From an uncultured Actinomycetes bacterium (lineage in GTDB: Bacteria > Actinomycetota > UBA4738 > HRBIN12): a stretch of 64,000 nt of DNA. The notes under the pieces were generated by a model, which was not told where the DNA came from, searched no databases, and saw only the letters and a list, made by a program, of their open reading frames with translations. The position numbers and the translations under genes were made by a program. Below, piece by piece: positions 43,914-64,000 of the stretch. Numbering within the stretch: position 1 is the first letter of the stretch; every line of letters begins with the position of its first letter. The stretch is from NCBI GenBank assembly GCA_963704885.1, contig CAVPIB010000004.1:1056001-1120000 (forward strand). Direction: 5' to 3'.

Positions 43914-43952
43914 GACCGGACCGATGATACCCAGGGTGGATGGAGGGAAGCC

Positions 43953-44348: not shown

Positions 44349-44395
44349 TCGCGCGCCTCTCGCGCGAAGACGAAGAAGAAGGATGTGACCAACCA

Positions 44396-44445
44396 CGCGA
44401 CACGGCCCTGCCGGTGCGGGTCTTGTGGACCGGGGCCGTGACGCG
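44396..44445. other. Intergenic inverted repeat (12/13 bp stem)
   Basis: CGCGACACGGCCC (44396-44408) pairs with GGGCCGTGACGCG (44433-44445) with one mismatch. Confidence 0.4.
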
Positions 44446-44478
44446 CGGCCGGGATACGGTTGCGTAAGGAGGTCCCCG

Positions 44479-45150: not shown

Positions 45151-45172
45151 GGTGACGCACAGACCTCGGCGA

Positions 45173-46003: not shown

Positions 46004-46068
46004 GGCGAGCACGCTAACAGGACGCCCGTCCACCGGCCGACCCCTGCCGTCTGTGAGCCCTTCGCGGT

Positions 46069-47076
46069 TCAGTCGAGAAGGCCGAGCACACGTCCGAAGT
46101 TGTCGCCCAGGATCCCATCGATCTTGTGCTGGGGGATCGGCGGCAGCCCGCACGCATCGGCTTCCTCGTTCACACCGACCAACTTCTCCATCAGCTTCAC
46201 CGGGTCGTACAGGAACCCGGGGTAGTCGGTACCGAAGAAGATCTTCTCGAGCGGGACGAACATCGGCTCGCAGCGGGACAGCAACAGGAACAGGTCCCTC
46301 CTCGTGATGCTCGCGATCAGGTAGGACAGCTCCGCGTAGAAGTTGGGATGTTTCGTGAGCAGGAACAGAGCCTCGTCGACCCACGGCAGTCCGCAATGCG
46401 CGACGATCACGCGCAGATCCCTGAACACGCGGCCGATATCGTCCAGGAGCGCGGGCCGCCCGAGCTCGAGCTTGGCGTCGATGCGGGTCGAGCCCGCCTG
46501 GTGGATCATCACGGGGATCCCCAGTTCCTGAGCCTTGGCATAGACCGGGAAAGCGACGTCTGGATCGTTGGGCGCCCAATGCTGGTACATCGGGTAGAGC
46601 TTCACTCCCGAGAGTCCGAGCTCGACGACGGCCCGTTCGAGCTCGGCGACCGCCGCCTCTGGTCCGTTGTACATCGGGTTCACCGACGCGAACCCGATGA
46701 ACCGGTCGGGGTCGGTGTGCACGACCGCAGCGATGTAATCGTTGCAGAGGTCGGGGTGCTTCGGCCCGTCGACCCCGAGGAGCCCCGTCGTGTCGACGGT
46801 CCCGATCAGTCGCCCATCCAGCCACTGCGGCGAGATCGCCAGGACGACCACCTTGTCGAACCCGGGGTGATCGCGAAGCGACTCCTCCGGCCCGATCACC
46901 GGCCACCCCTTGCGCGTGAAGCCGCTCGCCTCCCACTCCTCCTCGGTCGGCATCCGGTGCGACGGAAGGAGTCCCATGCTCCTGTAGATGCACAGCGACC
47001 CCTCGCGGCCGTACTCGATGGTGAACTCCGGATCCTCGGCGAGGCTGAGGATGTGGCTGTGCGCGTCGATGATCAC
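46069..47076 (-). CDS. Amidohydrolase_2 family metalloenzyme
   Basis: IIDAHSH, GVKLYP, PVMIH, AHCG, FGTDYP; GTG at 47076 overlaps the corrected upstream stop (GTGA). Confidence 0.82.
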   Translation of the reverse strand: MIIDAHSHILSLAEDPEFTIEYGREGSLCIYRSMGLLPSHRMPTEEEWEASGFTRKGWPVIGPEESLRDHPGFDKVVVLAISPQWLDGRLIGTVDTTGLLGVDGPKHPDLCNDYIAAVVHTDPDRFIGFASVNPMYNGPEAAVAELERAVVELGLSGVKLYPMYQHWAPNDPDVAFPVYAKAQELGIPVMIHQAGSTRIDAKLELGRPALLDDIGRVFRDLRVIVAHCGLPWVDEALFLLTKHPNFYAELSYLIASITRRDLFLLLSRCEPMFVPLEKIFFGTDYPGFLYDPVKLMEKLVGVNEEADACGLPPIPQHKIDGILGDNFGRVLGLLD

Positions 47077-48654
47077 GACGCCACTCCCGGTGGCCGCTTC
47101 GCGTTGTAGGCATAGGCGGGCTCGACGGGCATCCCATACCAGCGCTGATAGAAGTCGATCACGTACGGCTCGACCAGCCGACCGAGCTCCGCCCACCTCT
47201 GCACGTCGCTCGGGGAGCCGGTAGACGCGCTCGTGCACCGCTGCCGCGAACCGTTCCTTCACGGCGTCCTCGTCGACAACGGTCACGCGCCCGCCTTCGA
47301 CCAGGACGCGGCCCTGCACCATCACCGTGTCGATGTCGGACGCCTCCGCCCGGTCGAGCACCACGTCCAGGAACGGCTCCTGGTCGTAGCGACCCGGCGG
47401 GAACATGATCCGTTCCTTGTCGACGATCAGCAGGTCGGCCAGCCGGCCGGGCGCGAGGGATCCAAGCCGGTCTTCCATCCCCAGAGCGCGAGCACCGTTG
47501 ACGGCGGCAGCCCGAAGCACCGCTTCGCTATCGAGCCGTTGCCGTTCGAACGTGTGTGGCATCCGCTGCAGGTAGCAGGCGAGCCGCAGCTCCTGGAAGA
47601 AGTCCTCGCGATCGGAGAACGAGATGCCGTCCGTGCCGAAGGCGATCCGCCCGCCGGTATCCATGATGTCGCGCACACGACAGATCCCGCTCGACAACCT
47701 GAGGTTCGACCCGGGATCGTTCGACGCGACGGCCCCTGAATCCGCGAAGATCTGTAGCTCGTCGTCCGTCACCCAGACGAAGTGCTCCAGCACGGTCTCG
47801 GGTGTCAACACCCCGATGTCGGCCAGACGCTGGAGCGCGGGCTTCCCGTACCGCTCGAGGTTGTAGAGCATCTCCGATCGCGTTTCGAGCGCGTGCGTGA
47901 TCATCCCCGTTCCGTGCTCGTCCGCCGTTCGTCGGCAGAGACGATAGAGGTCGTCGGAGCACGCCGGTGTCCAGTCCGGCGCCGTCACGATCCTGAAGCG
48001 GTCGTCTCGGCCATGCCAGGTGGAGTGCAGACGCTCGAACGACGCCATCACGTCCTCGATCGGCCAGGCATAGCCCATCGGTGAACCGCGAACCTCATCA
48101 GCCAGGTCGGCGGGCAGGCGTTCGAGGAAGCGTTCGTTGGGCTCGTGGACGTAGATGTTCTCGTCACGACTCACGAGGCCGAACGCGGTCCGCATGCCGA
48201 TGTCCTCGTAGGCCCTCAGCGCCGGAGGGCATCCGAAGTCGGACATGCCCGGCCTCCCGTAGTACATGTCGACCGTCGCGGTCTGCCCACCCTTCAGCGC
48301 GTTGACCAGCCCCCAGAGGACCCCTGTGTAGAGGTCTTCTTCCTCGATGTCGCCGGTCGCCGCCTGGATGAAGACGTTCGCACGCTCGAAGATGAACTGA
48401 TACAGCCCCGGACCGATGGCGAGCTCGGAGTGGTAGTGACAGTTCACGAATCCCGGCATCACGAAGTGGGCGCCCGACCCGAGCACGGCGTCGAACGGAC
48501 CCCGACCTTCGAGCTCGGTGCGTGCACCAGCCGCCACGATCGTCGAGCCCTCGACGATCAGCGCGCCGTCGGGGATCAGCGCCTGCTCACCCAGCGCGAC
48601 GATCGGGTCACCCAGGATCAGTCTTCGCCCAACGGGTGTATCTACGAGCGTCAT
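47073..48654 (-). CDS. Deaminase-type (AtzA/TrzA-like) amidohydrolase; frameshift near 47212
   Basis: NCHYH, HALE, EH, SNLRLSSG, GTDG; removing one base from the G run at 47212-47215 gives the C-terminus DVQRWAELGRLVEPYVIDFYQRW...AS* ending at 47073. Confidence 0.82.
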
Positions 48655-48666
48655 CGTGCGGCCTTC

Positions 48667-49992
48667 CTACGAGGGCACGACCATCCTTTCGAGCACGTGC
48701 TGGAACGCAAGGTTCGCCTCGTGCAGAGTGCGTCCCTCATCGATCGTCGTGAACTCTCGGTCGCGGTAGAGGATCTTCCCGTCGACGATCGTCGTGTTCA
48801 CCGCACTCCCGTTAGCGGCGAAGACCAGATGTGAGTACAGGTGCGCCTTCGACTCGGGGAACAACGGTGTGAACATCTGGTTGCCGAGGTCCACCGTGAT
48901 CACATCGGCCTTCTTGCCCACCGTCAGCTCGCCCGTGTCGTGCCTAAGCGCAGCGGAACCGTTGCGCGTGGCCATCCGCACCACGTCGGGCGCCTGCTGC
49001 AGGCTTGGGTCCACCCGGCTCGCGCGATGTATCAGCGACGCGAACTTCATCACCTCGAACAGGTCGCGGCTGTTGTTGCACTCAGCGGCGTCGTGACCGA
49101 GCCCGACGTTCAGCCCGGCGGCGAGCATCTCCGGAACGCGGGCGATCCCGTTGCCGAGCTTCGCGTTCGAGGACGGGTTGTGTGAGATCTGCGTTCCCGT
49201 CTCCCGCATCAGCGCGATCTCGGTATCGGAGAGCCAGACGCAGTGCGCCGCGATGCATCGATCGAATAGGATGCCGCAGTCGTACGCGACCTCGGTCGGA
49301 CGCCGGCCGAACCGTTCCTTGGAGTTCTCGACCTCGGTCAGTGACTCGTTCAGGTGGATGTGGATCCCCGTATCCAGATCGTCCGCGAGCATCCTCGTGT
49401 CTCTCAGAAGTCCTTCCGAGGCGAGCGGCAGCCACTCGATGCCGATGTACACCTCGATGCGGCCGTTCGCCGCGCCGTTTGATTGCTCGTAGGCGGCCTT
49501 GTTGTCCTCCAAGGTGTCGAGGTCGTGCTCGTCGTCGGCGACGTCGTTAGACAAGACGGCCCGGATCCCGATCTCCTCCGCCGCCCTGGCCAGCCCGCCC
49601 AACTGGCGGTACATGTCGTTGACCGTCGTTACGCCGCACTTGATCGACTCGCTGTAACTCGCGAGAGCCGCCCAGTAGGCCTCCTCCGGGTTCAAGGCCC
49701 GGATGATCGGATACCAACACGTGTCGAGGTACTCCCACAGCGGCAGGTGGTCGCTCCAGCCCTTGCCGACCGCGGTGTGGTAGTGCAGGTCGACGAGGCC
49801 GGGGAGGACCGCCTTGTCGGAGGCGTCGATCACGGTCGCGCCGGCCTCTTCGGTCCTGCCGGCGACATCGGCTGCGGTGCCGACGTCGGTGATCCGGTCG
49901 TTCTCGATCACGACGGTGCCGCCGAAGATCACGTCGTCCGCGTCGTTCATGGTGACCACGGTGCCGTTCTTGATGATGATCCGATCGCTCAT
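48667..49992 (-). CDS. Deaminase-type amidohydrolase (MTA/SAH deaminase-like)
   Basis: DLHYH, HIHLNE, AHCV, HNPSSNAKLGNG, GHDA. Confidence 0.85.
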   Translation of the reverse strand: MSDRIIIKNGTVVTMNDADDVIFGGTVVIENDRITDVGTAADVAGRTEEAGATVIDASDKAVLPGLVDLHYHTAVGKGWSDHLPLWEYLDTCWYPIIRALNPEEAYWAALASYSESIKCGVTTVNDMYRQLGGLARAAEEIGIRAVLSNDVADDEHDLDTLEDNKAAYEQSNGAANGRIEVYIGIEWLPLASEGLLRDTRMLADDLDTGIHIHLNESLTEVENSKERFGRRPTEVAYDCGILFDRCIAAHCVWLSDTEIALMRETGTQISHNPSSNAKLGNGIARVPEMLAAGLNVGLGHDAAECNNSRDLFEVMKFASLIHRASRVDPSLQQAPDVVRMATRNGSAALRHDTGELTVGKKADVITVDLGNQMFTPLFPESKAHLYSHLVFAANGSAVNTTIVDGKILYRDREFTTIDEGRTLHEANLAFQHVLERMVVPS

Positions 49993-50005
49993 CGCGTCCC
50001 CCTTC

Positions 50006-51517
50006 CTATCGAGAGATCCCTTGCCCCGACTGGGGCACCGCCGAGGTCAGGTCGACCCAGACCGACTTCGAGTGCAGGTATGGCTCCAACGCCTCCTCGC
50101 CTAGCTCCTTGCCGAACCCGGAGTGCTTCCGACCGCCGAACGGCACCGCGACGTCGAACATCCCGTAGGTGTTGATCCATACGGTGCCGGCGTCGAGGCG
50201 GTCGGCCAGACGCAACGCCTTGCTCACATCCGACGTCCAGATGCCGGAGGCGAGACCGTAGTCGACGCCGTTCGCGAGCGCGAGCAGCTCCTCCTCGTCC
50301 TTCCACGGTATGACCGAAAGAACGGGACCGAAGATCTCCTCCTGGGCGACCTTCATGTCGTTGCGCACCCCGCTGATGACCGTCGGTTCCAGGAAGAAGC
50401 CGCCCTCGTGTCCGCTCACGCTCGCGTCCGAACCCCCGACGACCACGTCCGCGCCCTGCTCCCGGGCCGACTCGACGTAGCTCTTCACGCGCGTCCGATG
50501 GGCCGCCGAGATGAGCGGCCCCATCTGAGTGTCGGGATCGAGGCCGGAGCCCAGTCGGATCTGGCCCGCCCGTTCGCTGACCACGGCTGCGAGCTCGTCG
50601 GCCACCGATGCTTCCACGAAGAGTCGCGACCCGGCGACGCAAGCCTGGCCCTGGTTGAAGAAGATGCCGCCGAAGGCTCCGCTCGCGGCCGCATCGAGGT
50701 TCGCGTCCGCGAACACGATGTTAGGGCTCTTGCCTCCGAGCTCCAGGGACACGCGCTTCAGACCGTCGGCTGCGCTCCGCATGATCTCCTTCCCGGTGGC
50801 CGTCTGACCCGTGAAGGCGATCTTCTGCACGCCGGGATGCCGCACGAGCGCGGCACCGATGTCGGGTCCCCCGATCACGACGTTGACGACGCCGGGTGGG
50901 AAGCCGGCCTCGTGGACCAACTCCATCAGGCGGAGCGTGGAGAGCGGCGCGAGCTCGGATGGCTTGATCACGATCGTGCAGCCAGCCGCAAGCGCGGGAC
51001 CGAGCTTGTAGCCGACCTCCAGCAGCGGGAAGTTCCACGGTGTTATCGCCGCGACGACGCCGACGGGCTCCCGCTTGGCCACCGTGAACATCCCCGGGAT
51101 CGAGTTGGGCAGGACCTTCCCCTCGATCTTCGTCGTCCATCCCGCGTAGTAGCGCAGCAGCTCGATCGTCAGCGCGATGTCGACGGCCTCCGCCTCCCAC
51201 ATCGGCTTGCCGTTGTCCAGGACCTCGATCGTCGCGAACTCGTCCTTGTTCGCCTCGAGGAGGTCGGCGAGCGTCCACATCAGCCGGGCTCGCTGGGTCG
51301 CGGGCGTGGATCGCCACACGTCGAACGCGCGAGCCGCGGCCGCGACCGCGGCATCGACCTCGCGTTCGGTCGCGAGCGGCGCCTCGGCGAGGGTCTGGCC
51401 CGTCGCCGGGTTGATCGTCGCGAGCGAACCGTCCGTCTCCACGAACGCCCCGTCGATGTACAGGCGGAGCGGCCGGTCCAAGAACCCCATCGTCTGCTCG
51501 GAGATCGTGGATGCCAT
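50006..51517 (-). CDS. NAD-dependent aldehyde dehydrogenase
   Basis: PWNFP, KPSE, FTGQ, LELGGKSP, GQACVAGS, EEIFGP. Confidence 0.95.
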   Translation of the reverse strand: MASTISEQTMGFLDRPLRLYIDGAFVETDGSLATINPATGQTLAEAPLATEREVDAAVAAAARAFDVWRSTPATQRARLMWTLADLLEANKDEFATIEVLDNGKPMWEAEAVDIALTIELLRYYAGWTTKIEGKVLPNSIPGMFTVAKREPVGVVAAITPWNFPLLEVGYKLGPALAAGCTIVIKPSELAPLSTLRLMELVHEAGFPPGVVNVVIGGPDIGAALVRHPGVQKIAFTGQTATGKEIMRSAADGLKRVSLELGGKSPNIVFADANLDAAASGAFGGIFFNQGQACVAGSRLFVEASVADELAAVVSERAGQIRLGSGLDPDTQMGPLISAAHRTRVKSYVESAREQGADVVVGGSDASVSGHEGGFFLEPTVISGVRNDMKVAQEEIFGPVLSVIPWKDEEELLALANGVDYGLASGIWTSDVSKALRLADRLDAGTVWINTYGMFDVAVPFGGRKHSGFGKELGEEALEPYLHSKSVWVDLTSAVPQSGQGISR

Positions 51518-51533
51518 ATCTCGTTTGCCTCCT

Positions 51534-52562
51534 TCAGCTCGTGAGCTCGAGCACCTGACGCCCCAATACGGCGCGCCTGCGCAGCGCATCGAGCGCTTCG
51601 TGGATCCCTTCGAGCGGATAACGGCCCGCGATGGGCACCGTCAAAGCGCCCGCCGCCGCGAGCGTGAGCGCGTCCTGCAGGTCCAGACGCGTCGCCGCCA
51701 CCGTGGACACGAACGACGTCTCCGGCAGGATGAATTCGATCGGATGGATCTCGAGTAACTGGTCCGTGTAGCCCGTCGACACGAAACGCCCGCCCTTGGC
51801 GAGGGACCGGATGCCCGCGTTCATGGTCTGGGTCGTCCCCACGAGCTCGTAGAAGACGTCGGTGCCTCGTCCGTCCGTGAGCGCTCGCACTCGGTCCGGC
51901 ACGGTCTCGTAGCTCTCCGGCGAGTCGACCAGCACCCCATCGCTCGCACCATGTGATCTCGCAAGCTCGAGCTTCTCCTCCGAGTCGCCGATCGCGATCA
52001 CTCGTGCGCCGGCGTGGGCCGCCGCCTGAACCACGATGATGCCGACGCCACCGATCCCGTTCACGACCGCGGTGTCTCCCAGGCGCAGCCCCGAGAGCTT
52101 GGTCGCGTGTATCGCCGTCATCCCTGCGCACGTGAGGACGGAGGCGGCCGCCAGGTCGACGTCGTCGGGAACCGGCACGGCGTTCTGCTCGGGGACGACG
52201 ACGTACTCGGCGTCGCCTCCGTCCCGGTTGAAACCGAGCTGTTCGGGCTCGTTGTCGCAGATGTTCGTCCGGCCCTTGAGGCACTGCTCGCACCGACCGC
52301 AGAAGATCTTGTTGTAGATCGCGACGCGCGATCCGGTCGTCAAGGACACTCCATCTCCGACGCCCTCGACCATGCCGGCGGCCTCGTGCCCGAGCGTCAT
52401 CGGGTACGGGTCCGGCTTGATCATGCCGTCGAGGATGTGGAGATCGGTCCCACACACACCCGCGGCGTGGATCCGGATCAGCACCTCGCCCGGCCCCGGG
52501 ATCGGGTCGTCGATCTCGTCCAAACGCAGAGATAGGTCTTCGTGGATCCGTACCGCACGCAT
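51534..52562 (-). CDS. Zn-dependent alcohol dehydrogenase (MDR)
   Basis: GVCGTD, GHE, CGRCEQC...C, GIGGVG. Confidence 0.92.
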   Translation of the reverse strand: MRAVRIHEDLSLRLDEIDDPIPGPGEVLIRIHAAGVCGTDLHILDGMIKPDPYPMTLGHEAAGMVEGVGDGVSLTTGSRVAIYNKIFCGRCEQCLKGRTNICDNEPEQLGFNRDGGDAEYVVVPEQNAVPVPDDVDLAAASVLTCAGMTAIHATKLSGLRLGDTAVVNGIGGVGIIVVQAAAHAGARVIAIGDSEEKLELARSHGASDGVLVDSPESYETVPDRVRALTDGRGTDVFYELVGTTQTMNAGIRSLAKGGRFVSTGYTDQLLEIHPIEFILPETSFVSTVAATRLDLQDALTLAAAGALTVPIAGRYPLEGIHEALDALRRRAVLGRQVLELTS

Positions 52563-53270
52563 CTACGCTCCTTCTCCCTCGGTGGGACCGGCAGAATGGT
52601 CGTCGCCATACGCCATGTCCCAGAACTCGGCCTCGTACCGTGTGGATCGCTCGAAGATCCGCGAGAGGCTCGCCATGCGGCCCTCGTCGCTCGGATCGAC
52701 GAGTCTGTCGAGCAGAGCCGTGCTCTGCGCCACCAGCCCGTCGTATTCGTCGTTGCCGAACATCCCGATCCAGTCGGCGTAGATCGGGTCATCCGGCGGG
52801 TGCGCCGTGAGCGGCCGCGCCAACTCCCCGTAGCTCCACTGGCACGGCAGCACCGCGGTGAGTCCATCCGCGCAGTCGCCGAGAGCGCAGACGGAAAGGA
52901 GGTGCCGCGTGTACCCGTAGGTGGCCGGGAACATCTCGCCTCGGCCGGCGAACGTGTCGGGATCACCTCCAAGGCGATCGAGGAAAGCGAGGTTGGCAGG
53001 GATCTCGCCCTCGACGATCCGCGCCTGGAACCTCGTGAGGACCGTGATCGCATCCCGGTCGGGGGCCTTCCCGACGATCATGCCGATGGCTCGCGCATAG
53101 TCCTCGAGATACGGGATGTTCTGAGTGAAGTACCGCCTGAAGGTCTCGTGCGGGAGCGAGCCGTCCGCGATGCCCCTTACCATCGGGTGATGGACCGCTG
53201 CATCCCACGAATCCCTCCCTTGCCGGTGAAGGATCGAAGCCACGCGGCCATCTGGCCGTTCCCCGGTCAC
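52563..53270 (-). CDS. tenA: TenA / thiaminase II family protein (Cys-type, variant)
   Basis: HPMVRGIADGSL, YTRHL, LPCQWSY (catalytic Cys), YADWIGMF, YEAEFWDMAY. Confidence 0.88.
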   Translation of the reverse strand: MTGERPDGRVASILHRQGRDSWDAAVHHPMVRGIADGSLPHETFRRYFTQNIPYLEDYARAIGMIVGKAPDRDAITVLTRFQARIVEGEIPANLAFLDRLGGDPDTFAGRGEMFPATYGYTRHLLSVCALGDCADGLTAVLPCQWSYGELARPLTAHPPDDPIYADWIGMFGNDEYDGLVAQSTALLDRLVDPSDEGRMASLSRIFERSTRYEAEFWDMAYGDDHSAGPTEGEGA

Positions 53271-53989
53271 TCAACCACCTCGTCTTCGAACGCCGCCCTC
53301 GTGGCCAGCTGATCTGCCAGGACGCTGCCGATGTGGACCCGCATCAGCCGCTCCGCCTCGTCCGGATCGCGCGCGACGATCGCCTCCACGATCGCTGCGT
53401 GTTCCTCGACGGATGACTCGACCCGTCCGGGGATGCTCTCCGTGAGCTTGCCGATCCTCGTGAGGTGCGCCCGCAGGTTGTCGATCAGGGCCCCGATCCG
53501 CTCGTTCTTCACCTGTGCGTACACGATCACGTCGAACCGCTCCAACAGTCCCGCCAGCCCGACCAGATCGCCCGCGTCCCGGAGCTCACGGCTGCGGTCG
53601 ACCACGTCGCGCAGCGCGCCGACGGTTTCATGGTTCGACCCCTCGGCAGCTGCACGCGCGGCGGCCCCTTCCAGTAGCGCGCGCAGCTCGTAGATCTCCA
53701 TCAGATCCCGCTCCGAGTAGCCCGATACGACCGCGCCTTTGAAGGTGGTCGTCTCCACGAGTCCCTCCAGCTTGAGTCGCGCGAAGGCTTCGCGGAGCGG
53801 CGTCTTGCTCACCCCCAGCTGTTCGGCCAGCGCCGCCTCCCGCAGCGGCTCGCCGGGAAGGAGACGAAGCTCGATGATCGCGTCACGGAGCTCCTCCCAC
53901 ACCCAATCGGTCATGTTGCGGCGGTCGGGGCGTCCCGTGAACACGGGCCGTTCTTCACTCGTCTCCGCGCTTCGCAGGTCGTCCATCAA
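53267..53989 (-). CDS. GntR/FCD-family transcriptional regulator
   Basis: LREAALAEQLGVSKTPLREA HTH; EIYELRALLEG and EEHAAI in the FCD domain. Confidence 0.92.
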   Translation of the reverse strand: MMDDLRSAETSEERPVFTGRPDRRNMTDWVWEELRDAIIELRLLPGEPLREAALAEQLGVSKTPLREAFARLKLEGLVETTTFKGAVVSGYSERDLMEIYELRALLEGAAARAAAEGSNHETVGALRDVVDRSRELRDAGDLVGLAGLLERFDVIVYAQVKNERIGALIDNLRAHLTRIGKLTESIPGRVESSVEEHAAIVEAIVARDPDEAERLMRVHIGSVLADQLATRAAFEDEVVE

Positions 53990-55439: not shown

Positions 55440-56517
55440 GCGGAAAGCTCCTCGAACCGCTCGACCGTCCGCGCCAGTGCCCGCACCCCGTCCTCGATCG
55501 GACCCGTCTCGATCCATTCCTCCGGCGTGTGCTCGCCCGATCCTGTGGTCACTCCCACGGCGATCGCCGGGATCCCACGGGCGTGGGCGGCGTTCGCATC
55601 GGTGCTCGTGGGTGGAGTCACCGAAGCTATGCCGACCTCGCCGAGCGCGTCCTGCGCGGCGCGGACGAGGGCATGTTCCTGGTCCACGCGGCCGGCGGGC
55701 CGGTCGCCGAGCACCTCTTGCTCCAGCGAGAGGGGTGGATCTACCTGCATGGCCAAGTCGTCCACCTGGCGCGCCAGCGCCGCGAGAGCATCCGGATCGT
55801 CGGCCCGGAGGTCGAGCTCGAACCACGCCTCGCGTGCCCGCATGTTGATGCCCTCGCCACCGCCGATGCGACCGATGTTCACGGAGGTCCCCTCGCGGCG
55901 AGGGATCGCGGCGATCGACCCGACGAGCTCGGGCGACACGGTGGACCGCGCTCGGCATCTCGGCGGCCTCCCACGCGTGACCACCAGGACCGCTCACGCG
56001 GATGCGACGGCGAACCGATCCGACGCCGACCGTCGACACGCGGCCCAGGTAGTTCCCTTCGACGGCGACGAACCCGGCGACCGGCGAGGGCGAGGCGTCG
56101 AGCGCTGCGATCGCTCCGCGCAGGTTGCCGAGACCCTCTTCACCCACGCTGGCGAGCAGCCAGACGGCCCCTCCATCGTCGTGCGAGCAACGCGCCGGCC
56201 GAGGACAGGGCTGCGACGCCGACGGAGTCGTCGCCGACGCTCGGACCGACGAGCGTCTCGCCTTCGACACGCACGATGTGGGGCACCCCGGATCCGAACA
56301 CGGTGTCGAGGTGTGCGCACAGGATGACGATCGGACCGTCACCACTCCGCGCCCGTCCCCAGACGTTGCCGGCCGCGTCTACGTGCACCTCATCGAGCCC
56401 ATCGAGCTCCCACCACGATCGGACCAACGCGGCTCGCTCCCCTTCGGCCCCCGTCGGCGCGGGCACCTCGGCGATCTCGATCGTTCGACGCACCACGGTC
56501 TCCGTGACGTCGCTCAC
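55436..56517 (-). CDS. M20 metallohydrolase; frameshifts near 56180 and 55932
   Basis: AHLDTVF, GPSVGDD | VGEEGLGNLRG, GGHAW | NIGRIGGG, STDAN, HTPEEW spread over three frames; each junction is repaired by removing one base. Confidence 0.8.
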
Positions 56518-57716
56518 GAGGCGATCGCCACCCCTTCGGCCACCAGCGCGCCGACGTCCTCCCGGCTGTAGCCGAGCTCGGTCAAGACGTCGAACGTGTG
56601 CTCCCCGAGCGCGGGCGCCGGCGACGGATAGTCGAGCGGCTCCAGGTCGAACCGCACCGGCGTCCCCACGACGCGGTAGTCGCCGGCGCTCGCGTGATGC
56701 AGCTCCTGCACCGCGCCCAGAGCCCGCGTCTGTTCGCTCGCGAGGATCTGCGCGATGTCTTGGACCTCGGCCGCCGGGACGCCTTCGGCGCCGAGCAACG
56801 CCAGCCAGTGCTCGCTCGGCTCCCGGCGAAGAACCTCTTCCAGCGCGGCCGTCAACTCGTCGCGGTGGCTGACGCGAGAGGCGTTATCTGCGAACCGGGG
56901 ATCGTCGAGCAGGTGCTGGGCACCGAGCACCCCGCAGCACCGGACCCACAGGTCTTCGGAGCCGGCCCCCGCCAGCACGATCCAACCGTCGGCGGTGCGG
57001 AACCCGCCGTAGGGCGCGAAGGTCGGAGAGTGCGTCCCCAGCAGGCCGGGCACCTGCCCCGAGACGAACGTGCTCGCCGCGAGCGACCCGAGGGCGGCGA
57101 GCGCGAACTCGAGCAACGAGGACGACACGTGCCTCCCGATCCCGGTGCGCTCCCGTTCGACGTGCGCGGCCAAGAGGCCGAACGCGCAGCACATGCCCGC
57201 GCCGACGTCCAGCACGGGAGCGCCGACCTTCACCGGGCCCGACCCCTCGCTGCCGGTGACGCTCATCAGCCCGCTCTCGGCCTGAAGGATCAGATCGAAC
57301 CCGCCGCGGGCCGCGTCGGGCCCGACGTCGCCATAGCCGGAGATAGAGCCGTAGACGATCGACGGGAAGCGCTCGTGCACGGTCTCCCAGTCCAGCCCGT
57401 AACGCGCGAAGCTTCCCGGCCGGGCGTTCTCGACCAGGAAGTGCGAGGAGGCGAGCAACCGGTCGACCGCCTCGGTCGCCAGAGGCGAGCGGAAGTCCAG
57501 AGCGAGGCTCCGCTTGCCCGAGTTCAGCGAGAGGAACAGCACCGACTGATCCCCGAGCCGCTCGGTCCCTTGCACCCGGTACGGATCTCCCCCCGGCGGC
57601 ACCTCGAGCTTCACGACGTCGGCGCCGAACGCCGCCAACAGCGCGGTCGTCTGCGATCCGGCCACGAAACGCGTCAGATCGAGAACGCGCAGGCCTTCGA
57701 GCGGCCGGCTCACCAT
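56514..57716 (-). CDS. Family III CoA-transferase (CaiB/BaiF)
   Basis: [51 protein letters not shown]. Confidence 0.92.
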
Positions 57717-59305
57717 GGATGCGGCTCCCTGAACTCGCCGAATACCGATCGGAAGACATCCGACAGCTCTCCCAAAGTGGCCCCGACTCGCACAGCGTCG
57801 ACCAGCGAGGGCATCACGTTGGAGCCGTCACGGGCGGCGGCCTCCACGACGGCCGTCGCGTCAGCGCACGCCGCCTGGTCGCGGGCAGCCACGCGCGACG
57901 CGGTGCGCGCCACCTGCCGGTCCGCGATCGAAGGATCCAGCGCGAACAGCTCCGGGGTCTCGGCGGAGGTCTCAGCTGGGTCCGCGTACACGTTCACCCC
58001 GACCCGCGGTCGCGTTCCGTCGGCGGTCTCGCGTTCGATCCGGTACGCGGACTCTGCGATCCAGCGTTGCGACACGCCTCGTTCGATCGCCTCCACCGCG
58101 CCTCCGAGCGCCGCGATCTCGGTCAGGACCTCGTTCGCACGCGCCTCGAGCTCGTCGGTCAGCGTCTCCAGGTAGTAGGAACCGGCCAAAGGATCGACCG
58201 TCCGAGGCACGCCCGACTCCAGGGCGACGATCTGCTGCGTGCGGAGCGAGAGCGTCACCGCCTCCTCCGACGGGATCTCGAACGCCTCGTCGTAGCCCAT
58301 CACGTGGATCGACTGCGCTCCCCCGAGCACCGCCCCGAGGCACTGGATCGTCGAGCGGATGATGTTGTTGAGAGGCTGCTGCGCGGTAAGCGTGGTGCCT
58401 GAATTGCCCGAGAAGAACCGCAGCCGCCCGGAGTTCGGGTCCTTCGCGCCGAACCGTTCGGTGGCGATCCGGTACCACATCCGTCGCGCCGCGCGGAGCT
58501 TCGCCACCTCCTCGAACAGGTCCATCGTGGTGGCGAAGTGGAACGAGAGCCGCGGTGCGAACGAATCGAAGTCCAAGCCGCGAGCGACCAGAGCTTCCGC
58601 GTACGCGATCGCCGACGCCAGCGTCAGTGCCAGCTCCTGGACCGCGTCGCAGCCAGCCTCACGCGCGTGGTATCCGGTGATCGAGATCGGATTGAACCTC
58701 GGGAGCCGCCCCGACGCGAACTCGATCACGTCGCAGGACAACCGCATCGACGGCTCGGGCGGGAAGACGAAGGTCTTGCGGGCGAGGAACTCCTTCAAGA
58801 TGTCGTTCTGAAGCGTGCCGGCGAGCGCTCCCTGGGACACGCCCTGCCGCTCGGCGGCCACGAGGTACATCGCCAGGATGATGGGGGCGGTCGCGTTGAT
58901 CGTGAAGTTCACCGAGATCTCGTCCAGCGGCAGCCCCGCGAACAGGTCGACCATGTCCTCCGCGGTGTCGATCGCCACCCCGACCCGCCCGACCTCCGAC
59001 CGCGCCACGGGATGACCGGAGTCGTAGCCGAGCTGCGTTGGAAGATCGAACGCGACCGACAATGCCGTCTGGCCTCGATCGAGCAGGAAGCGGAACCTCT
59101 CGTTCGCCTCCTCGGGAGACCCGAAGCCTGCGAACTGACGCATGGTCCACAGCCGTCCGCGATACATCGAGGGATAGGGACCGCGCGTGAACGGCGGCGC
59201 TCCGGGGGCGCCGAGCCGTTCGGCCAACCCGGGCGCCAGGTCGTCTTCCGCATAGACCTCGCGCACAGGGATGCCGGCGTCGGTCACGTCGCGGACCTCG
59301 CTCAC
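57710..59305 (-). CDS. B12-dependent acyl-CoA mutase, large (substrate-binding) subunit
   Basis: [51 protein letters not shown]; GTG at 59305. Confidence 0.92.
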
Positions 59306-59707
59306 GGCTCCACCCGCTCTCGCGACGCCAGCGCGAGTACCCCCTCGACCACCTCGTGCAGTCCCGTGCCGACCGGGTAGACGGCCGCGACGCCCAGCTC
59401 CCGTGAGCGCTGCGGCGTCCACATCGGGGACCGTGCCGCCCACGACGACCGGGATGTGGACGCCCTCGGCATCCCGCGCCTGCAGGAGGTCGGCCGCGAG
59501 CGGCATGTGCGCGCCCGACAGCACCGAGATCCCGATCACGTCGACGTCTTCCTGGATCGCCGCCTGCACGATCTCAGGGGCCGTCCGGCGCAGGCCCAGA
59601 TAGACGACCTCCGCGCCGGCGTCCCGCAGCGCCATCGCGATCACCTTGATGCCGCGGTCGTGCCCGTCCAGTCCGGGCTTCGCGAGCAGGACGCGCGGCT
59701 GCCTCAC
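59302..59707 (-). CDS. Cobalamin-binding small subunit of the mutase; frameshift near 59400
   Basis: [10 protein letters not shown] (DxHxxG), SVLSGAH, GG; removing one base at ~59400 gives [12 protein letters not shown]...RVEP* with the stop overlapping the large-subunit GTG. Confidence 0.88.
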
Positions 59708-60666
59708 ACGAGCTCCCCCGCAACCATCACGGGCCGCCCATCCAGCTCGAGAGTCGCATCGCGCATCACGCAGTCCAGATGCGCGATCGCGTCCACGTTG
59801 CCGCCGTATGCGATGGAGTTCCCCAATGCGATGTGCGCCGTGCCGAGCGCCGACTCCGTCTCCATCGCCACCCCGCACACCCGTCCCGACGGATTGAACG
59901 CCATCGAGACCTCCGCCAGGTTGCCCATCCGGTCGTCGGCGCATCGCGCGAGCATCTCCTGGAGCCGGCCCGCCTCCTCCCCCTCGACGCCGGCCAGCTC
60001 GCCGGCCGCGAAGTGGAGCACGACGGGCGAGGGCAGCGGCCCCTGGCCCATGAACAACAGGTCGGCGTCCACGACGACGATGCCCTCGCTCGAGCCCTCG
60101 ACCGGAGCCGTCCCCGACTCGATGTCGGGCGGCGCCATGTAGTCGCCGTCATCACGAGCGAGTCCGTGCAACACCCGGCCGGGACGGCCTTCGACCGATC
60201 CGCGCAGATCGGTGCCGGCAGGCGTCGTTAGGTGGAAGGCGGCGGCCTTCCCCCATGCGGCGCCCACCCGTTCGGCGTCGGCACGGATCGCGTCGAAGTC
60301 GACCGCGAGCGGGCCATCGTCGCGGAACGTCTCCAGCCGAACGCCGGGCATCGCGAGGTAGCGCACGCCCGCCTGGGTGGCGCTGCGTCGGGCCGCGCTC
60401 GAGCCGATGAACAGGCTCGTCAGCTCGATGACGGCACCCGCCTCGAGCATCGCGGCCGCAGCGGTGCTGGGTGGCTCCGAACCGGGCAACGGGGGCGTGG
60501 GGATCTTCGAGACCACGGCCACGCCGTTGCGAGCCTCGATGCCCGTGACCAACCCGGCCACGACGTCCAGGTCGGTCCCGTCGTCGGTCAGCAGCAGGAC
60601 CTGTTCACCCGACCGAACGGCCAGACACCGATCGAGCAGGTTGTCGAAGCCCTTCGGCACGTCCAC
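59704..60666 (-). CDS. M29 'leucyl aminopeptidase'-like / NicX-like metalloenzyme
   Basis: [41 protein letters not shown]. Confidence 0.7.
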
Positions 60667-60670
60667 GCCA

Positions 60671-61855
60671 TCAGGTCCCTTCGGCTGACGTCAGCGCCAG
60701 CGCGGCAAAGACCGAGTAGACCTTCGTCGCCTCGTGGATGTCCTCGACCGTCAGGTGCTCGTCGGGGCAGTAGACGGGAGGTCCTCCGGGTCCGAAGATC
60801 ACGGTCGGCACCTTCTCCCCGAAGCTGGCCGTGTCGCCTAGCCAGTTCTCCACGACGAGCGGCGGCTCCTCCCCTCGCACGTCGCGCACCGCCGCTCGCA
60901 TCAGTCGCACGACGTCGTCGTCCGGAGCTGCGAGGTACCCCGCCTTCACGTCGGCCAGCACGACCTCCGCACGGAAGCGCGGGTCGGCCTTAGCCGCCTC
61001 GCCCAGGCACCTGTCGATCTCGGCGCGAACTTCGTCGATCGATACGCCGGGCTGCGGCCGGCAGTCGACGCGGATCACGCACTCGTCCGGGATCATGGAG
61101 GGACCACCGGGCGCGAGCCCACCGTAGATCCGGCCCGGGACTATGAAGGTCTCGGCTCCGAACAGGTCGACGATCCAGGGCTCCAGCTGCGGCTCGTACT
61201 TCGACGCGTCCAGGGCCAGCACCGCCTGGGCCGCGAGCACGTTCGCGTTGATCGCCTGTGGTTTGTGGCACGTGTGGGCGGACCGGCCGACCGTCGTGAT
61301 ATCGAAGTAGTAGCGACCCCTGTGTCCCAGGCAGACCTGGTTGTCGGTCAGCTCCCCGAGGACGCATAGGTCGGCGTCGAACTCGTCGAAGTACGCGATC
61401 GAACCGAGCTGGTCGCCCATATGGTCGGCCACCGCGGCCATGCTGACGGTGCCCTTCAGCGGCAACCCCGATGCGCGGACCGATTCGATCGCCACGATCT
61501 GACACGCCAGCGCGGCCTTCATGTCCATGACGCCGTGGCCGTATACCGACCCATCGATCAGGGCACCCGAGAACGGCTCCGTGACGCTCCACCCTTGCGA
61601 TACCGGCTTCGTGTCCATATGGCCGGTGAGGACAACCCTCGGGCCATCCCCGAACGAGGCGTGCCCGACGGCGTTGGGTCGGTCCGGAAGCACCGGTTGA
61701 AGCTGCACGCCCTCGAAGCCCGACTCGGACATAACGGAGGCCAGGAACGCAGCCAGTTCGCCCTCCTCACCGAGGACGGACGGGATCCGGCACACCTCCT
61801 GGACGAGCTCCACAGCGCGATCCAGATCGAGCGCATCCAGGACGTCGGTGGTCAC
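60671..61855 (-). CDS. ArgE/DapE/YlmB-like M20 deacylase
   Basis: GHMDT, GHGVMDMK, LGE, GRSAH; the usual DEE segment reads ADHM. Start uncertain (61855 or 61882). Confidence 0.8.
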   Translation of the reverse strand: MTTDVLDALDLDRAVELVQEVCRIPSVLGEEGELAAFLASVMSESGFEGVQLQPVLPDRPNAVGHASFGDGPRVVLTGHMDTKPVSQGWSVTEPFSGALIDGSVYGHGVMDMKAALACQIVAIESVRASGLPLKGTVSMAAVADHMGDQLGSIAYFDEFDADLCVLGELTDNQVCLGHRGRYYFDITTVGRSAHTCHKPQAINANVLAAQAVLALDASKYEPQLEPWIVDLFGAETFIVPGRIYGGLAPGGPSMIPDECVIRVDCRPQPGVSIDEVRAEIDRCLGEAAKADPRFRAEVVLADVKAGYLAAPDDDVVRLMRAAVRDVRGEEPPLVVENWLGDTASFGEKVPTVIFGPGGPPVYCPDEHLTVEDIHEATKVYSVFAALALTSAEGT

Positions 61856-61862
61856 CGAGGTG

Positions 61863-61988
61863 GTATCTGATATCTCACGCACCAGGGCGGAAAGGTAACG
61901 TCTGCACTGCCGATGGGTCAAACCCATCGTGGATCAGGTGCAAGGTCTTCGTTTGACAACGGTTCGCATCTCGTATCTCATATGCCGC
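61863..61988. promoter_or_regulatory. Divergent promoter region with 7-bp periodic RYATCTS repeats (putative GntR operator)
   Basis: GTATCTG-ATATCTC at 61863-61876; GCATCTC-GTATCTC at 61966-61979; TTGACA at 61953-61958; 8-bp inverted repeat at 61911-61929. Confidence 0.5.
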
Positions 61989-62750
61989 ATGACAGCCCTC
62001 GCCACCCCGGCGATAGAGCTCAGAGGTGTGCGCCAGCGATTCGGTGATGTCGTCGCGCTCGCCAACGTGGACTTCACGGTCAACCGGCACGAGCGGCTGG
62101 GGATCGTGGGCCCGAGCGGCTGTGGCAAGTCCACCCTCCTCTCCGAGATCGCGGGACTCATCCAGCCCGACGAGGGGACGGTCTCGATCGACGAGGCAAC
62201 GACGCCGAAGGAGCGCCTCAAGCGGTGTGCACTGATGCCGCAGCGAGATCTCCTGCTCCCCTGGCGGACCGCCATCGACAACGCCGCGATCGCCCTGCAG
62301 AACCGGGGCATGAAGATCGCCCCGGCACGGGAGAAGGCGCGGCCGCTGTTCGAGCGGTTCGGTCTCGCGCAGTTCGAGGAGCGGATGCCTGCCGAGCTCT
62401 CCGGCGGCATGCGCCAGCGCGTCGCGTTCCTGCGGACCCTCATGGCCGAGAAGGACATCCTCCTCCTCGACGAGCCGTTCGCGGCCCTCGACTCGATCAC
62501 CCGGTCCAGCATGCAGGAGTGGCTGCTCTCCGCGCTCGAGCAGGAACCCCGGACGGTCCTGCTCGTTACCCACGACGTGGACGAGGCACTCTTGCTCACC
62601 CATCGGGTCATGGTGATGTCCGCGCGCCCCGGGCGGATCGTCCGCACGCTCGAGACGGACCTACCGCGCGATCGTTCGCGCCGCGAAGTCGTCACATCGC
62701 CGCAGTTCTCGGCCTTGAAGGAGTCCGCACTAGAGGCGCTGGAACTATGA
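61989..62750 (+). CDS. ABC ATP-binding protein (ThiZ-like)
   Basis: GPSGCGKST, MPQRDLLLPWRT, LSGGMRQRVAFLRT, LLDEPF. Confidence 0.92.
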   Translation: MTALATPAIELRGVRQRFGDVVALANVDFTVNRHERLGIVGPSGCGKSTLLSEIAGLIQPDEGTVSIDEATTPKERLKRCALMPQRDLLLPWRTAIDNAAIALQNRGMKIAPAREKARPLFERFGLAQFEERMPAELSGGMRQRVAFLRTLMAEKDILLLDEPFAALDSITRSSMQEWLLSALEQEPRTVLLVTHDVDEALLLTHRVMVMSARPGRIVRTLETDLPRDRSRREVVTSPQFSALKESALEALEL

Positions 62751-63553
62751 ACGAGCAGGCAAGCGACCTCACACCGAAGCCGAGCGGGTCGAGCGTGCGC
62801 CGGATCGTGGATCGATACGGACCCCCGGCGCTCGTGGTGGTGGTCACGATCGCACTGTGGGAGATCGTCATCCAGATCCTCGACGTGCCGACCTACATCT
62901 GGGCGCCCCCAACGCTCATCGCCCAAACCATCCAAGAGCGTTTCCCGGAGCTGATCCATCACGGAGGCGTCACGTTGATGGAGACCATGATCGGCTTCTT
63001 CTTCGCGATCTTCTTCGGCCTGTCCTTCGGGTTCCTCCTGCACTTCTCGACGATGGCCAGGCGTGCGCTCTATCCGATCCTCATCGCCTCGCAGAGCATC
63101 CCGACCGTGGTGCTCGCGCCGGTGTTCGTGCTGGTCCTGGGGTTCGGCCTGTGGCCGAAGGTCGGGGTCGTGACCCTCTTCTGCTTCTTCCCCATCGTGG
63201 TGGGCACGATCGACGGGTTGTCGGGTGTGGACCGCGAGTACATCCGGATGATGCTTACGCTGGACGCGACGCGGATGGGCATCTTCCGGCGGGTCGAGTT
63301 CCCTTCAGCCCTGCCGCAGATCTTCTCCGGCACGCGCGTGGCCGCCACCTACGCGGCGATCGGGGCGGTCTTCGGGGAGTGGGCCGGCTCGCAATCCGGT
63401 CTGGGCTGGCAGATGCTCCAGGCGAAAGGCCGACTCGACACGCCCCTCGTATTCGCCGACATCGTATTCATCACCGTGATGGCACTGGCGCTCTTCGGCG
63501 CCGTGTCGCTCGTCGAGCGCCTGACCATCCCCTGGGCGCGGAAAGGGGGGTGA
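62747..63553 (+). CDS. ABC permease (ThiX-like)
   Basis: SQSIP, FGLWPK, FFPIVV, PSALPQIFSG, GAVFGEW. Confidence 0.9.
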   Translation: MNEQASDLTPKPSGSSVRRIVDRYGPPALVVVVTIALWEIVIQILDVPTYIWAPPTLIAQTIQERFPELIHHGGVTLMETMIGFFFAIFFGLSFGFLLHFSTMARRALYPILIASQSIPTVVLAPVFVLVLGFGLWPKVGVVTLFCFFPIVVGTIDGLSGVDREYIRMMLTLDATRMGIFRRVEFPSALPQIFSGTRVAATYAAIGAVFGEWAGSQSGLGWQMLQAKGRLDTPLVFADIVFITVMALALFGAVSLVERLTIPWARKGG

Positions 63554-63632
63554 CCGAGGCTCTCGAGCACGCGGTGCCAACTCACCGCAAGCAGCAGATC
63601 AGGGCAACAACGGACGAACGGAGGAGGTACCT

Positions 63633-64000
63633 ATGGATCTGAAGAAGCGGAACATCCGTTCCCGCTTGCTCGCCCTCGGCGTCGTGATGGGCGTCTTGCT
63701 GGCGGCCTGCGGGAGCGACGCGGAAACCCCGGCGGCATCGCCGTCTTCCGGAGAGAGCCCCACCACGGCAGAGAGCCCAACGATGGCGCCCGCCACGCTT
63801 AAGGTGGCGCTGGACTGGTTCGCGAACCCCGATCACGTCGCGCTCTACTACGCGCAGGACAACGGGTTCTTCGCCGACCAGAACCTGACCGTTGAGTTCG
63901 AGGTCCCCTCGGACGTCACCGCAGGCCTCAAGCTCGTCGGGACGAACAAGTTCGACCTCTCGATCTTCTATCAGGGCGACATGTTCTTCGCCGCGCAAGA
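63633..64000 (+). CDS. NMT1/THI5 (ThiY-like) substrate-binding lipoprotein, partial
   Basis: Hand translation from ATG 63633: MDLKKRNIRS...LLAAC lipobox, then LDWFANPDH; GGAGG RBS; runs off the window. Confidence 0.85.
   Translation, partial: MDLKKRNIRSRLLALGVVMGVLLAACGSDAETPAASPSSGESPTTAESPTMAPATLKVALDWFANPDHVALYYAQDNGFFADQNLTVEFEVPSDVTAGLKLVGTNKFDLSIFYQGDMFFAAQ

Follow-up and report, generated by a model that had tools for sequence, protein, structure and literature searches.

The window analysed here is the whole stretch of 64,000 nucleotides (G000:C4:1056001-1120000) from the genome of an uncultured Actinomycetes bacterium (3.0 Mb in 20 contigs, about 68% GC). Genes were called from a listing of open reading frames (ORFs) with a filter on GC content at third codon positions, and families were assigned by Pfam, NCBIfam or fold search. 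Positions 46069-64000 contained a cluster of 15 co-directional minus-strand genes, with the two subunits of a B12-dependent acyl-CoA mutase counted separately, divergent from an ABC importer. Overlaps of 1-4 nt were present between most neighbouring minus-strand genes. The cluster is considered below as a possible catabolic operon for the pyrimidine half of thiamine. Its features were as follows:

46069-47076, minus strand: AH2, an Amidohydro_2 protein (ACMSD/decarboxylase-hydratase superfamily) of about 335 aa (Pfam PF04909, E 2.5e-33); the GTG start overlaps the AH1a stop
47073-48654, minus strand: AH1a, an Amidohydro_1 protein of the deaminase/chlorohydrolase (TRZ/ATZ) group (Pfam PF01979, E 2.5e-46), with a 1-nt frame break
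48667-49992, minus strand: AH1b, a deaminase-type Amidohydro_1 protein (Pfam E 2e-59)
50006-51517, minus strand: NAD(P)-aldehyde dehydrogenase (ALDH), likely start at 51517 (Pfam PF00171, E 4.6e-181)
51534-52562, minus strand: Zn-dependent alcohol dehydrogenase (ADH; Pfam ADH_N and ADH_zinc_N)
52563-53270, minus strand: TenA1, thiaminase II-like (Pfam PF03070, E 4.9e-34)
53267-53989, minus strand: GntR/FCD transcriptional regulator (Pfam GntR and FCD)
53986-54438, minus strand: glyoxalase-fold epimerase resembling methylmalonyl-CoA epimerase (Pfam Glyoxalase_4; TIGR03081 score 90.8, cut-off 115)
54435-55439, minus strand: luciferase-like oxidoreductase (LLM), probably of the F420-dependent branch (Pfam PF00296)
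55436-56517, minus strand: M20b, a second M20 deacylase/carbamoylase-like hydrolase, lying in three frames here (two frame breaks)
56514-57716, minus strand: family III CoA-transferase of dicarboxylate type (Pfam PF02515, E 1.9e-112)
57710-59305, minus strand: acyl-CoA mutase large (substrate-binding) subunit with a GTG start (Pfam PF01642, E 7e-194)
59302-59707, minus strand: acyl-CoA mutase small (B12-binding) subunit (Pfam PF02310), with a 1-nt frame break
59704-60666, minus strand: metalloprotein of NicX/M29 fold, 320 aa (AlphaFold2, Foldseek and profile comparison; no match in the local copy of Pfam)
60671-61927, minus strand: M20a, an ArgE/DapE-family deacylase and the first gene of the long operon (Pfam M20 and M20_dimer)
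61863-61873: candidate operator copy 1 (GTATCTGATAT), at the 5' end of M20a, either within the gene or just upstream
61973-61983: candidate operator copy 2 (GTATCTCATAT), within the 61-bp spacer ahead of the ABC ATPase start
61989-62750, plus strand: ABC ATPase of nitrate/sulfonate/taurine type, ThiZ-like, with an ATG start (Pfam PF00005; NCBIfam taurine/nitrate models below cut-off)
62747-63553, plus strand: ABC permease, ThiX-like (Pfam BPD_transp_1; NCBIfam SaoP/SsuC types below cut-off)
63633-64000, plus strand: NMT1/ThiY-type binding protein, cut by the window end (Pfam NMT1, E 8.9e-50 for the full protein, from L003)

The gene families named in a preliminary description of this stretch were all recovered by the Pfam, NCBIfam or fold searches, its count becoming 15 when the mutase subunits are taken separately, and the divergent transporter it proposed was found on the plus strand as ATPase, permease and NMT1-type binding protein. 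The cluster extended past the window: the binding protein ran to the window-equivalent position 64703, and a second TenA gene (TenA2) lay at 64762-65463 on the minus strand. TenA1 and TenA2 were the only TenA genes in the genome.

Four 1-nt frame breaks were found in about 12 kb of the window sequence: one in AH1a (near 47195-47217), one in the mutase small subunit (near 59388-59410) and two in M20b. They gave rise to an 861-aa ORF with Amidohydro_1 and Amidohydro_2 domains, a 744-aa ORF with B12 and mutase domains, and M20b spread over three frames. Frame analysis ruled out the two long ORFs as genuine fusions. Reading of all three frames showed that the C-terminus and TGA stop of AH1a lay in another frame and overlapped the GTG start of AH2, and that the C-terminus and TGA stop of the mutase small subunit likewise overlapped the GTG start of the large subunit. 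In G001 the mutase subunits were separate genes of 135 and 537 aa with a 4-nt overlap, and M20b was in a single frame in G001 and G013; the earlier reading of a split mutase and three amidohydrolases was therefore right, as relatives have intact, separate genes. The G005 assembly contained many similar breaks in the same genes. The four breaks may be assembly indels or real decay. Among public sequencing runs, no RNA run matched, and the best DNA runs shared at most 0.13 of words.

Conservation of the cluster was investigated by locus scans with the NicX-like gene and AH1b as queries, using one genome per species. Across more than 100 species-level genomes from Actinomycetota classes and Dormibacterota, and in one contig labelled Acetobacteraceae, the gene set was kept, though rearranged; the cluster is real and strongly conserved. 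With a threshold of E 0.001, 9 of 41 relatives had the NicX-like gene, seven as strong matches (the count includes G008), and full synteny was seen in G001, G005 and G013. The NicX-like scan gave 34 loci, all from uncultured Actinomycetota, and the mutase adjoined the query in 31; two of the other three were cut off at the mutase position, and L050 was without mutase and CoA-transferase. In the AH1b scan the best 80 of 153 relatives were kept (72-93% identity), belonging to Actinomycetota, Streptosporangiaceae, Thermoleophilia, Gaiellales, Solirubrobacterales, Acidimicrobiia, Dormibacterota and the Acetobacteraceae contig. Absence of such co-conservation elsewhere had been named beforehand as a result that would refute the proposal; both scans found the genes together.

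Gene content was tallied at the 46 AH1b loci with full 10-kb flanks, counting matches of at least 38% identity. TenA was present in 37, GntR in 36, AH1a/AH2 in 36, LLM in 34, mutase, ADH and M20b in 33 each, CoA-transferase in 32 and ALDH in 26; in the long form, the transporter often lay beyond the 10-kb flank. The arrangement varied. The transporter was divergent in the present genome and co-directional with the operon in G001 and G013. AH2 was on the same strand or convergent in relatives, and sometimes absent. The mutase module (CoA-transferase, epimerase and mutase) was at the opposite cluster end in L131, L123 and L125. A Gaiellales/Thermoleophilia form consisted of AH1b, transporter, GntR, M20a, NicX-like, M20b, ALDH, TenA, ADH and LLM, with no mutase. 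In the Solirubrobacterales form (L131), mutase, epimerase and CoA-transferase were placed first, and hydantoinase-B/oxoprolinase-type and metallo-beta-lactamase-fold proteins stood in place of the LLM, M20 and NicX-like genes. The minimal form (L128, Thermoleophilia) had only TenA, transporter and two AH1 genes amid housekeeping genes. We take the core to be transporter, TenA and AH1b, with the mutase module as a frequent accessory. The route had been described as ending in the mutase; as worded this was not supported, since the module was missing from 13 of the 46 fully flanked loci and is better called an accessory end-piece.

Three of the variant loci had neighbourhoods of their own. The flanks of L128 (1-3027 and 11902-15483) encoded DXP synthase, a tlyA-like protein and NAD kinase on one side and CTP synthase, an M20 protein and a NUDIX protein on the other, which is a housekeeping neighbourhood and not a catabolic island. 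In L131 the variant ring- and amide-processing genes lay in the region 16600-21147. The Acetobacteraceae-labelled locus L121 (473-5003 and 11338-12618) contained an amidase, a GMC oxidoreductase and a histone-deacetylase-type amidohydrolase. The variant genes in L131 and L121 may be alternative solutions for the same steps.

Regulation of the cluster was investigated at the levels of RNA and DNA. Neither the window nor the 18 kb after it contained a match at the gathering score of any Rfam family, and a thiamine pyrophosphate (TPP) riboswitch was absent at the cluster; the single TPP riboswitch of the genome preceded thiE. The GntR/FCD regulator gene lay inside the operon. The motif GTATCT(G/C)ATAT was found in two copies, at 61863 and 61973, and these were the only two in the genome, both in the divergent promoter of the cluster. 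For this strict motif the expectation in the window was 0.23, and two matches were reached in 1 of 100 shuffles. A looser AT-rich motif was present in 31 of 120 loci, typically in transporter, GntR/M20a or ALDH promoters, including loci of Thermoleophilia and Solirubrobacterales. The motif was found by eye and pattern search; a search for inverted repeats in the promoter returned none at the settings used. We infer that the AT-rich motif is the operator of the cluster's own GntR protein. A GntR regulator and no TPP riboswitch fit catabolism rather than salvage.

The transporter and TenA proteins suggest an aminopyrimidine ligand. The best PDB relative of the binding protein was ThiY (3ix1, E 1.8e-35), followed by THI5 and THI13, which are synthases of the phosphate (HMP-P) of HMP (4-amino-5-hydroxymethyl-2-methylpyrimidine). 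TenA2 scored 163.3 against the thiaminase II equivalog TIGR04306 (cut-off 130) and had Asp44, Cys135 and Glu205 (Bacillus subtilis numbering is used for TenA throughout). TenA1 scored 126, just under that cut-off. Alignment of TenA1 with B. subtilis TenA showed that the catalytic Cys135 and Tyr47, Tyr112 and Glu205 were kept and that Asp44 was replaced by Asn, which was found at this position in 73 of 73 TenA1 orthologues. In the portion of the TenA study consulted, Asp44 hydrogen-bonds the amino groups of bound HMP-P, and the D44A variant is impaired in catalysis (PMC5623701). Asn44 of TenA1 would suit a 4-oxo ring. M20a scored 170 against TIGR01910 (cut-off 218), with DapE and ArgE as PDB relatives; it adjoined the transporter genes in most arrangements showing both, and other genes intervened in L110 and L118. 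The aminopyrimidine front end of the preliminary description was thus supported by the ThiY-like binding protein, by TenA2 above its cut-off and by the catalytic Cys in both TenA proteins.

AH1b was the most conserved gene of the cluster. Its best PDB match was the 5-methylthioadenosine/S-adenosylhomocysteine deaminase 4f0r (E 5e-54), and in the alignment to 4f0r the catalytic motifs HxH, HxxE, His and Asp of TRZ/ATZ (COG0402-type) deaminases were all intact in AH1b. Enzymes that remove the amino group from the 4-aminopyrimidine ring of adenine nucleosides are its nearest relatives of solved structure. AH1b was 72-78% identical to its counterparts in Thermoleophilia, Acidimicrobiia and Dormibacterota, where M20a, NicX-like and TenA proteins of the same loci were only 40-56% identical; AH1b is either an unusually constrained enzyme or was separately transferred. 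The NCBIfam matches of AH1a were 5'-deoxyadenosine deaminase, TRZ/ATZ and HutF types, all below cut-off. AH2 had no NCBIfam match, and its PDB relatives were weak (BB4693 and ACMSD, E about 1e-10).

Among the redox enzymes, ADH was below all NCBIfam cut-offs and ALDH was below all equivalog cut-offs, with BADH as its best match (542 vs 669). The best NCBIfam matches of LLM were F420 enzymes of Mer type, below every cut-off. Ten of its 11 PDB matches were named F420 enzymes, the best being Mer with 147 bits, and the eleventh was an unspecified 'luciferase family protein'. LLM scored only 27.3 against the RutA model TIGR03612 (cut-off 498), and a monooxygenase of RutA or SsuD type was rejected, the closest relatives being F420 enzymes. 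An F420 ligase was present in the genome. The ring reduction suggested earlier for this cluster fits an F420-type LLM of this kind. M20b, represented by its intact orthologue in G001, gave weak matches to the DapE and hydantoinase/carbamoylase families.

The NicX-like protein belonged to a family of 2604 cluster representatives at E 0.001 or better. The AlphaFold2 model built from a 117-sequence alignment had a pLDDT of 97.5, and Foldseek matched it over the whole length to NicX (7cn3, TM 0.81) and then to M29 aminopeptidases. Comparison of the family profile with NicX gave E 3.9e-41, and protein-atlas features agreed. The NicX site we take to be mononuclear Fe(II) held by two His and one Asp, with the HxD motif aligning with His318 and Asp320. 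In the profile alignment, the position of the first NicX iron ligand was Glu in the NicX-like family and the His of the M29-type 'H-I-A-x-G' motif was kept; E183, E252, H278, H296 and D298 were conserved in the 117-sequence alignment. The protein is probably a metallohydrolase rather than a dioxygenase, judging from these ligands. The M29/NicX-like assignment held for the fold, and the ring-cleaving dioxygenase was rejected as less likely, with M29-type hydrolase ligands conserved and the iron His replaced by Glu.

The features of the B12-dependent acyl-CoA mutase superfamily were all present: PF02310 with the DxHxxG motif (as 'DGHDRG') in the small subunit and PF01642 with the Tyr243-His244 pair in the large subunit, a pair kept in 73 of 76 cluster mutases. 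The large subunit scored 651 against the methylmalonyl-CoA mutase (MCM) equivalog NF006944 (cut-off 876). Its best PDB match was HcmA of 2-hydroxyisobutyryl-CoA mutase (HCM) with 519 bits; with human MCM the score was about 505 bits over the whole protein and 450 over the stretch that binds the substrate. Residue signatures of MCM, HCM and isobutyryl-CoA mutase (ICM) were taken in part from the alignments of PDB matches; the literature searched for specificity residues added none. Of the cluster mutases, 67 of 74 had Phe at the position of Tyr89 and 76 of 76 had Arg at that of Arg207, and the most distant ones (L123, L125, L131, L118 and L048) had Tyr at 89. The homologue search listed 120 matches, all metagenomic orthologues named 'methylmalonyl-CoA mutase', from which no subfamily could be assigned. 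Two further mutase paralogues were present in the genome: a Phe/Gln ICM-type protein in an 874-aa open frame (G000:C4:594657-596216) and a Tyr/Arg MCM-type protein (G000:C1:869586-871130). Among NCBIfam models, the CoA-transferase came nearest to succinate-glutarate and succinyl-CoA:mesaconate CoA-transferases, with scores far under the cut-offs. The cluster showed no MeaB-like G-protein.

The mutase module stayed with TenA, AH1b, ADH and ALDH in L103, L106, L113, L118, L123, L125 and L131. In L131 an aspartate ammonia-lyase (NF008909 score 692.5, cut-off 510) lay between the GntR gene of the module and the transporter; a 120-residue remnant of this enzyme was found in L123 and none in L125. 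A scan with the aspartase kept 80 loci, which were ordinary aspA genes of at most 65% identity from many phyla and added no cluster context, so that the support from aspartase amounts to one intact gene and one remnant.

A search of 41 genomes of the order, of which 25 are of high quality and one is the present genome (97% complete, all but 16 kb of it searched), detected no ThiC (PF01964). ThiD and ThiE were present in this genome; the lineage is therefore probably auxotrophic for HMP. In the class of G041, used for comparison, only 29 of 121 genomes had a ThiC match, and a need for external HMP seems to be the norm in these soil lineages. Among other cluster-bearing genomes, ThiC was present in 2 of 10; with 92 of the 121 comparison genomes also without ThiC, no association between cluster and ThiC can be claimed. 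An AH1b orthologue occurred in only one of the 121, the centre genome itself. Within family f1, TenA was present in 7 of 7 genomes with a strong NicX-like match and in 2 of 18 others (G002 and G011); family counts include G008, and order-wide tallies also include G029 and G037. TenA tracks the strong NicX-like marker and therefore belongs to the accessory cluster, not to general salvage.

From these results, we consider the chances about even that the cluster is a GntR-controlled, patchily distributed catabolic operon for the thiamine-derived 4-aminopyrimidines HMP, AmMP (aminomethylpyrimidine) and FAMP (formylaminopyrimidine); the single steps are less certain than this overall reading. The ThiXYZ-like importer would take up FAMP, AmMP or HMP, and TenA2 would turn AmMP into HMP, exchanging the C5-aminomethyl for a hydroxymethyl group; both steps are suggested by similarity. 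An M20 deacylase, probably M20a from its position and family, would remove the formyl group. We infer the chemistry after HMP from family membership. ADH and ALDH would oxidise the hydroxymethyl group to the 5-carboxylate, AH1b would hydrolytically deaminate C4, and TenA1, with its Asp44 to Asn change, might handle 4-oxo analogues. The F420H2-dependent LLM would reduce the C5=C6 bond. The NicX/M29-like hydrolase, AH1a (as a HutF-like deiminase) and M20b would open the ring, and C2 and its methyl group would leave as acetate and ammonia. The remaining branched C4 dicarboxylate, C4-C5(C7')-C6, would be activated by the CoA-transferase, epimerised and rearranged into an unbranched C4 acid by the B12 mutase. 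With N1 retained on C6 that acid would be aspartate, and without it succinate or malate; CoA would be passed back to the next substrate molecule. In a host without ThiC, HMP from the front end could also feed ThiD for cofactor synthesis. Pyrimidinecarboxylic acid, the 5-carboxylate of HMP, is described in the consulted part of a 2024 paper as a microbial product that is an orphan of unknown fate (PMC11223231).

One version of the last step would be a new B12 reaction, in which 2-(aminomethyl)malonate, left over from side-chain oxidation and reductive ring opening, is activated to aminomethylmalonyl-CoA and rearranged to aspartyl-CoA and hence aspartate by the CoA-transferase, epimerase and mutase. 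An aspartate-forming mutase would account for the lack of an aminotransferase in the cluster, the joint occurrence of Phe89 and Arg207 in the main clade and the aspartase found in L131, with a remnant in L123; we regard this version as speculative and distinctly improbable. A biosynthetic reverse of the route, as ThiC-independent synthesis of HMP, was rejected: the hydrolases and deaminases are not reversible in water, and most ThiC-less relatives do not have the cluster.

Several points weigh against catabolism of thiamine pyrimidines. Most of the enzymes score below all NCBIfam equivalog cut-offs, and the steps placed after TenA are predicted from family membership. Binding proteins of NMT1 type also serve other heterocycles; an NMT1-associated riboswitch is linked to xanthine and urate in one abstract (PMC7373994). 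The Phe89 signature is not general, as the distant cluster mutases carry Tyr. The 13 loci without the mutase module, and others without ALDH or AH1a, argue against a single fixed pathway. An organism without ThiC would be degrading a compound that it needs. Thiamine vitamers are scarce in nature, and dedicating about 19 genes to them (15 on the minus strand, three for the transporter, and TenA2) looks costly. If the frame breaks are real, part of the operon may not function in this strain.

The substrate could instead be another C5-substituted pyrimidine or an antivitamin, such as 5-hydroxymethylcytosine or 5-hydroxymethyluracil, hypermodified phage DNA bases, bacimethrin, oxythiamine or amprolium-like compounds, degraded by the same logic of substitution by a TenA-type enzyme at the C5 methylene, deamination, oxidation of the side chain, reduction and opening of the ring, and delivery of the C4 skeleton to the mutase. 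The deviation of TenA1 at the amino-binding Asp and its score just under the thiaminase II cut-off would agree with such a substrate, as would the varied ligands of NMT1-type proteins. The weak matches of M20b include carbamoylase-type amidases, which would suit a 2-oxo ring, and the AH2 superfamily has isoorotate decarboxylase as a member, the matches here being only ACMSD-like. However, the best solved relative of the binding protein is the FAMP-binding ThiY, with THI5 and THI13 next, TenA2 is above the thiaminase II equivalog threshold, and Pfam detected no nucleoside- or DNA-processing gene in the cluster. We consider a substrate of this kind unlikely. The cluster might also serve mainly for salvage in an HMP auxotroph, with imported thiamine fragments converted to HMP for ThiD and ThiE and the other genes detoxifying analogues or being mere neighbours. 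The missing ThiC of the order, the presence of ThiD and ThiE, the location of the only two TenA genes of the genome and the 2 of 10 ThiC count all agree with this explanation, but that count carries no signal where absence of ThiC is the base state, and in 16 of 25 genomes of the same family neither ThiC nor TenA was found, so that the family does not in general rely on TenA to obtain HMP. The cluster has no TPP riboswitch, its most conserved core gene encodes a deaminase that would destroy the 4-amino group, and the hydrolases, mutase and ALDH have no role in making HMP. Salvage as the main function is in our view quite improbable.

The least probable explanation, which we hold to be very unlikely, is that two unrelated units adjoin each other: one for uptake and trimming of aminopyrimidines and an ordinary methylmalonate/propionate module. 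The loci without the module and the canonical Tyr/Arg MCM signature of its distant versions would be expected from two such units. Against this, the module is embedded here in the operon, flanked by the NicX-like gene and M20b with stop and start codons that overlap, it is retained with TenA, AH1b, ADH and ALDH where clusters of several classes have been rearranged independently, and an MCM-type paralogue already exists elsewhere in the genome. On the sequence evidence, catabolism of the thiamine pyrimidine appears to be the best supported of the readings.

A full-text literature search, with subscription journals largely outside its reach, found no paper describing a catabolic pathway for the thiamine pyrimidine or HMP, or this gene set. 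The fate of the pyrimidine half of thiamine is reportedly a question dating to the work of Neal in the 1960s. The conserved operon provides a concrete gene set that would plausibly mineralise FAMP, AmMP and HMP, including a ThiY-like binding protein, two TenA variants, a strongly conserved deaminase, a putative F420 reductase, an uncharacterised NicX/M29 branch and an acyl-CoA mutase with a residue signature that is new in comparison with MCM, ICM and HCM. If the aspartate-forming version is true as well, the operon as a whole would make up the first catabolic route known to be complete for the pyrimidine half of vitamin B1, and a sink in the environmental B1 cycle that had not been seen before; the portions of B1 cycle work consulted treat FAMP, AmMP and HMP only as salvage currency. 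Soil Actinomycetota that are probably auxotrophic for HMP would carry a route consuming a precursor that they need, which bears on competition for vitamins in soil.

Two other regions of the window had notable gene content. Just upstream of the cluster, 41585-46225 encoded an AA_synth protein (PF06684), an amidohydrolase, a minus-strand isochorismatase-family hydrolase, a cupin, a nitroreductase and a 357-aa ORF without family; none of these genes recurred beside the cluster in the 120 related loci searched. A second nitrogen-compound cluster lay at 15375-22640 on the minus strand, with an M20 peptidase (15375-16598), an NMT1-type binding protein in two frames (about 16774-17977), two ABC permeases and a carbon-nitrogen hydrolase (21570-22640).

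The cluster was compared with known systems. The salvage route for formylaminopyrimidine in Bacillus (ThiXYZ, YlmB and TenA), reportedly established by Jenkins and colleagues in 2007, has several components in common with the cluster: a ThiY-like binding protein of the NMT1 family together with its ABC partners, a TenA protein carrying the catalytic Cys, and an M20 deacylase encoded beside the transporter. It differs in that the present cluster has no TPP riboswitch and has a GntR regulator with what may be its own operator motif, two TenA paralogues, one with Asn at Asp44, and about ten further enzymes, so that the predicted route does not stop at HMP.

The NicX-like protein shares the whole-length fold and the HxD motif with NicX, the 2,5-dihydroxypyridine 5,6-dioxygenase, but has Glu at one ligand position, and its conserved H278 and E183 are typical of the two-metal M29 peptidases PepS, AmpS and AmpT. 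Like MCM, the cluster mutase keeps the carboxylate-binding Arg207; unlike MCM (Tyr/Arg) it has Phe/Arg and a score below the equivalog cut-off, and it also differs from ICM (Phe/Gln). The split into small and large subunits is shared with HcmAB and IcmAB, whereas Phe, Ala and Arg occupy the positions of Ile90, Asp117 and Gln208 in HcmA (4r3u_A).

Chemical precedents for the proposed ring opening are found in two degradative pathways. In ectoine degradation by DoeA and DoeB, a 2-methyl cyclic amidine is hydrolysed to an N-acetyl compound and then deacetylated; the protein families differ, and the comparison is an analogy only. In histidine degradation, HutF is an amidohydrolase of the TRZ/ATZ group that hydrolyses an N-imidoyl group, and HutF models match AH1a and AH1b weakly. 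The proposed logic is closest in outline to reductive pyrimidine catabolism by dihydropyrimidine dehydrogenase, dihydropyrimidinase and beta-ureidopropionase, with reduction of C5=C6, hydrolytic ring opening and removal of the C2 fragment by an M20-type amidase; as with thymine carbon, the branched C4 unit would pass through an epimerase and a B12 mutase of the methylmalonyl-CoA kind. The cluster would differ in drawing on none of the usual enzyme families of that pathway, with an F420-type LLM in place of the flavin/FeS dehydrogenase, and TRZ/ATZ amidohydrolases and an M29/NicX-fold protein in place of dihydropyrimidinase. It has no aminotransferase, and the C2 methyl group would leave as acetate, not CO2.

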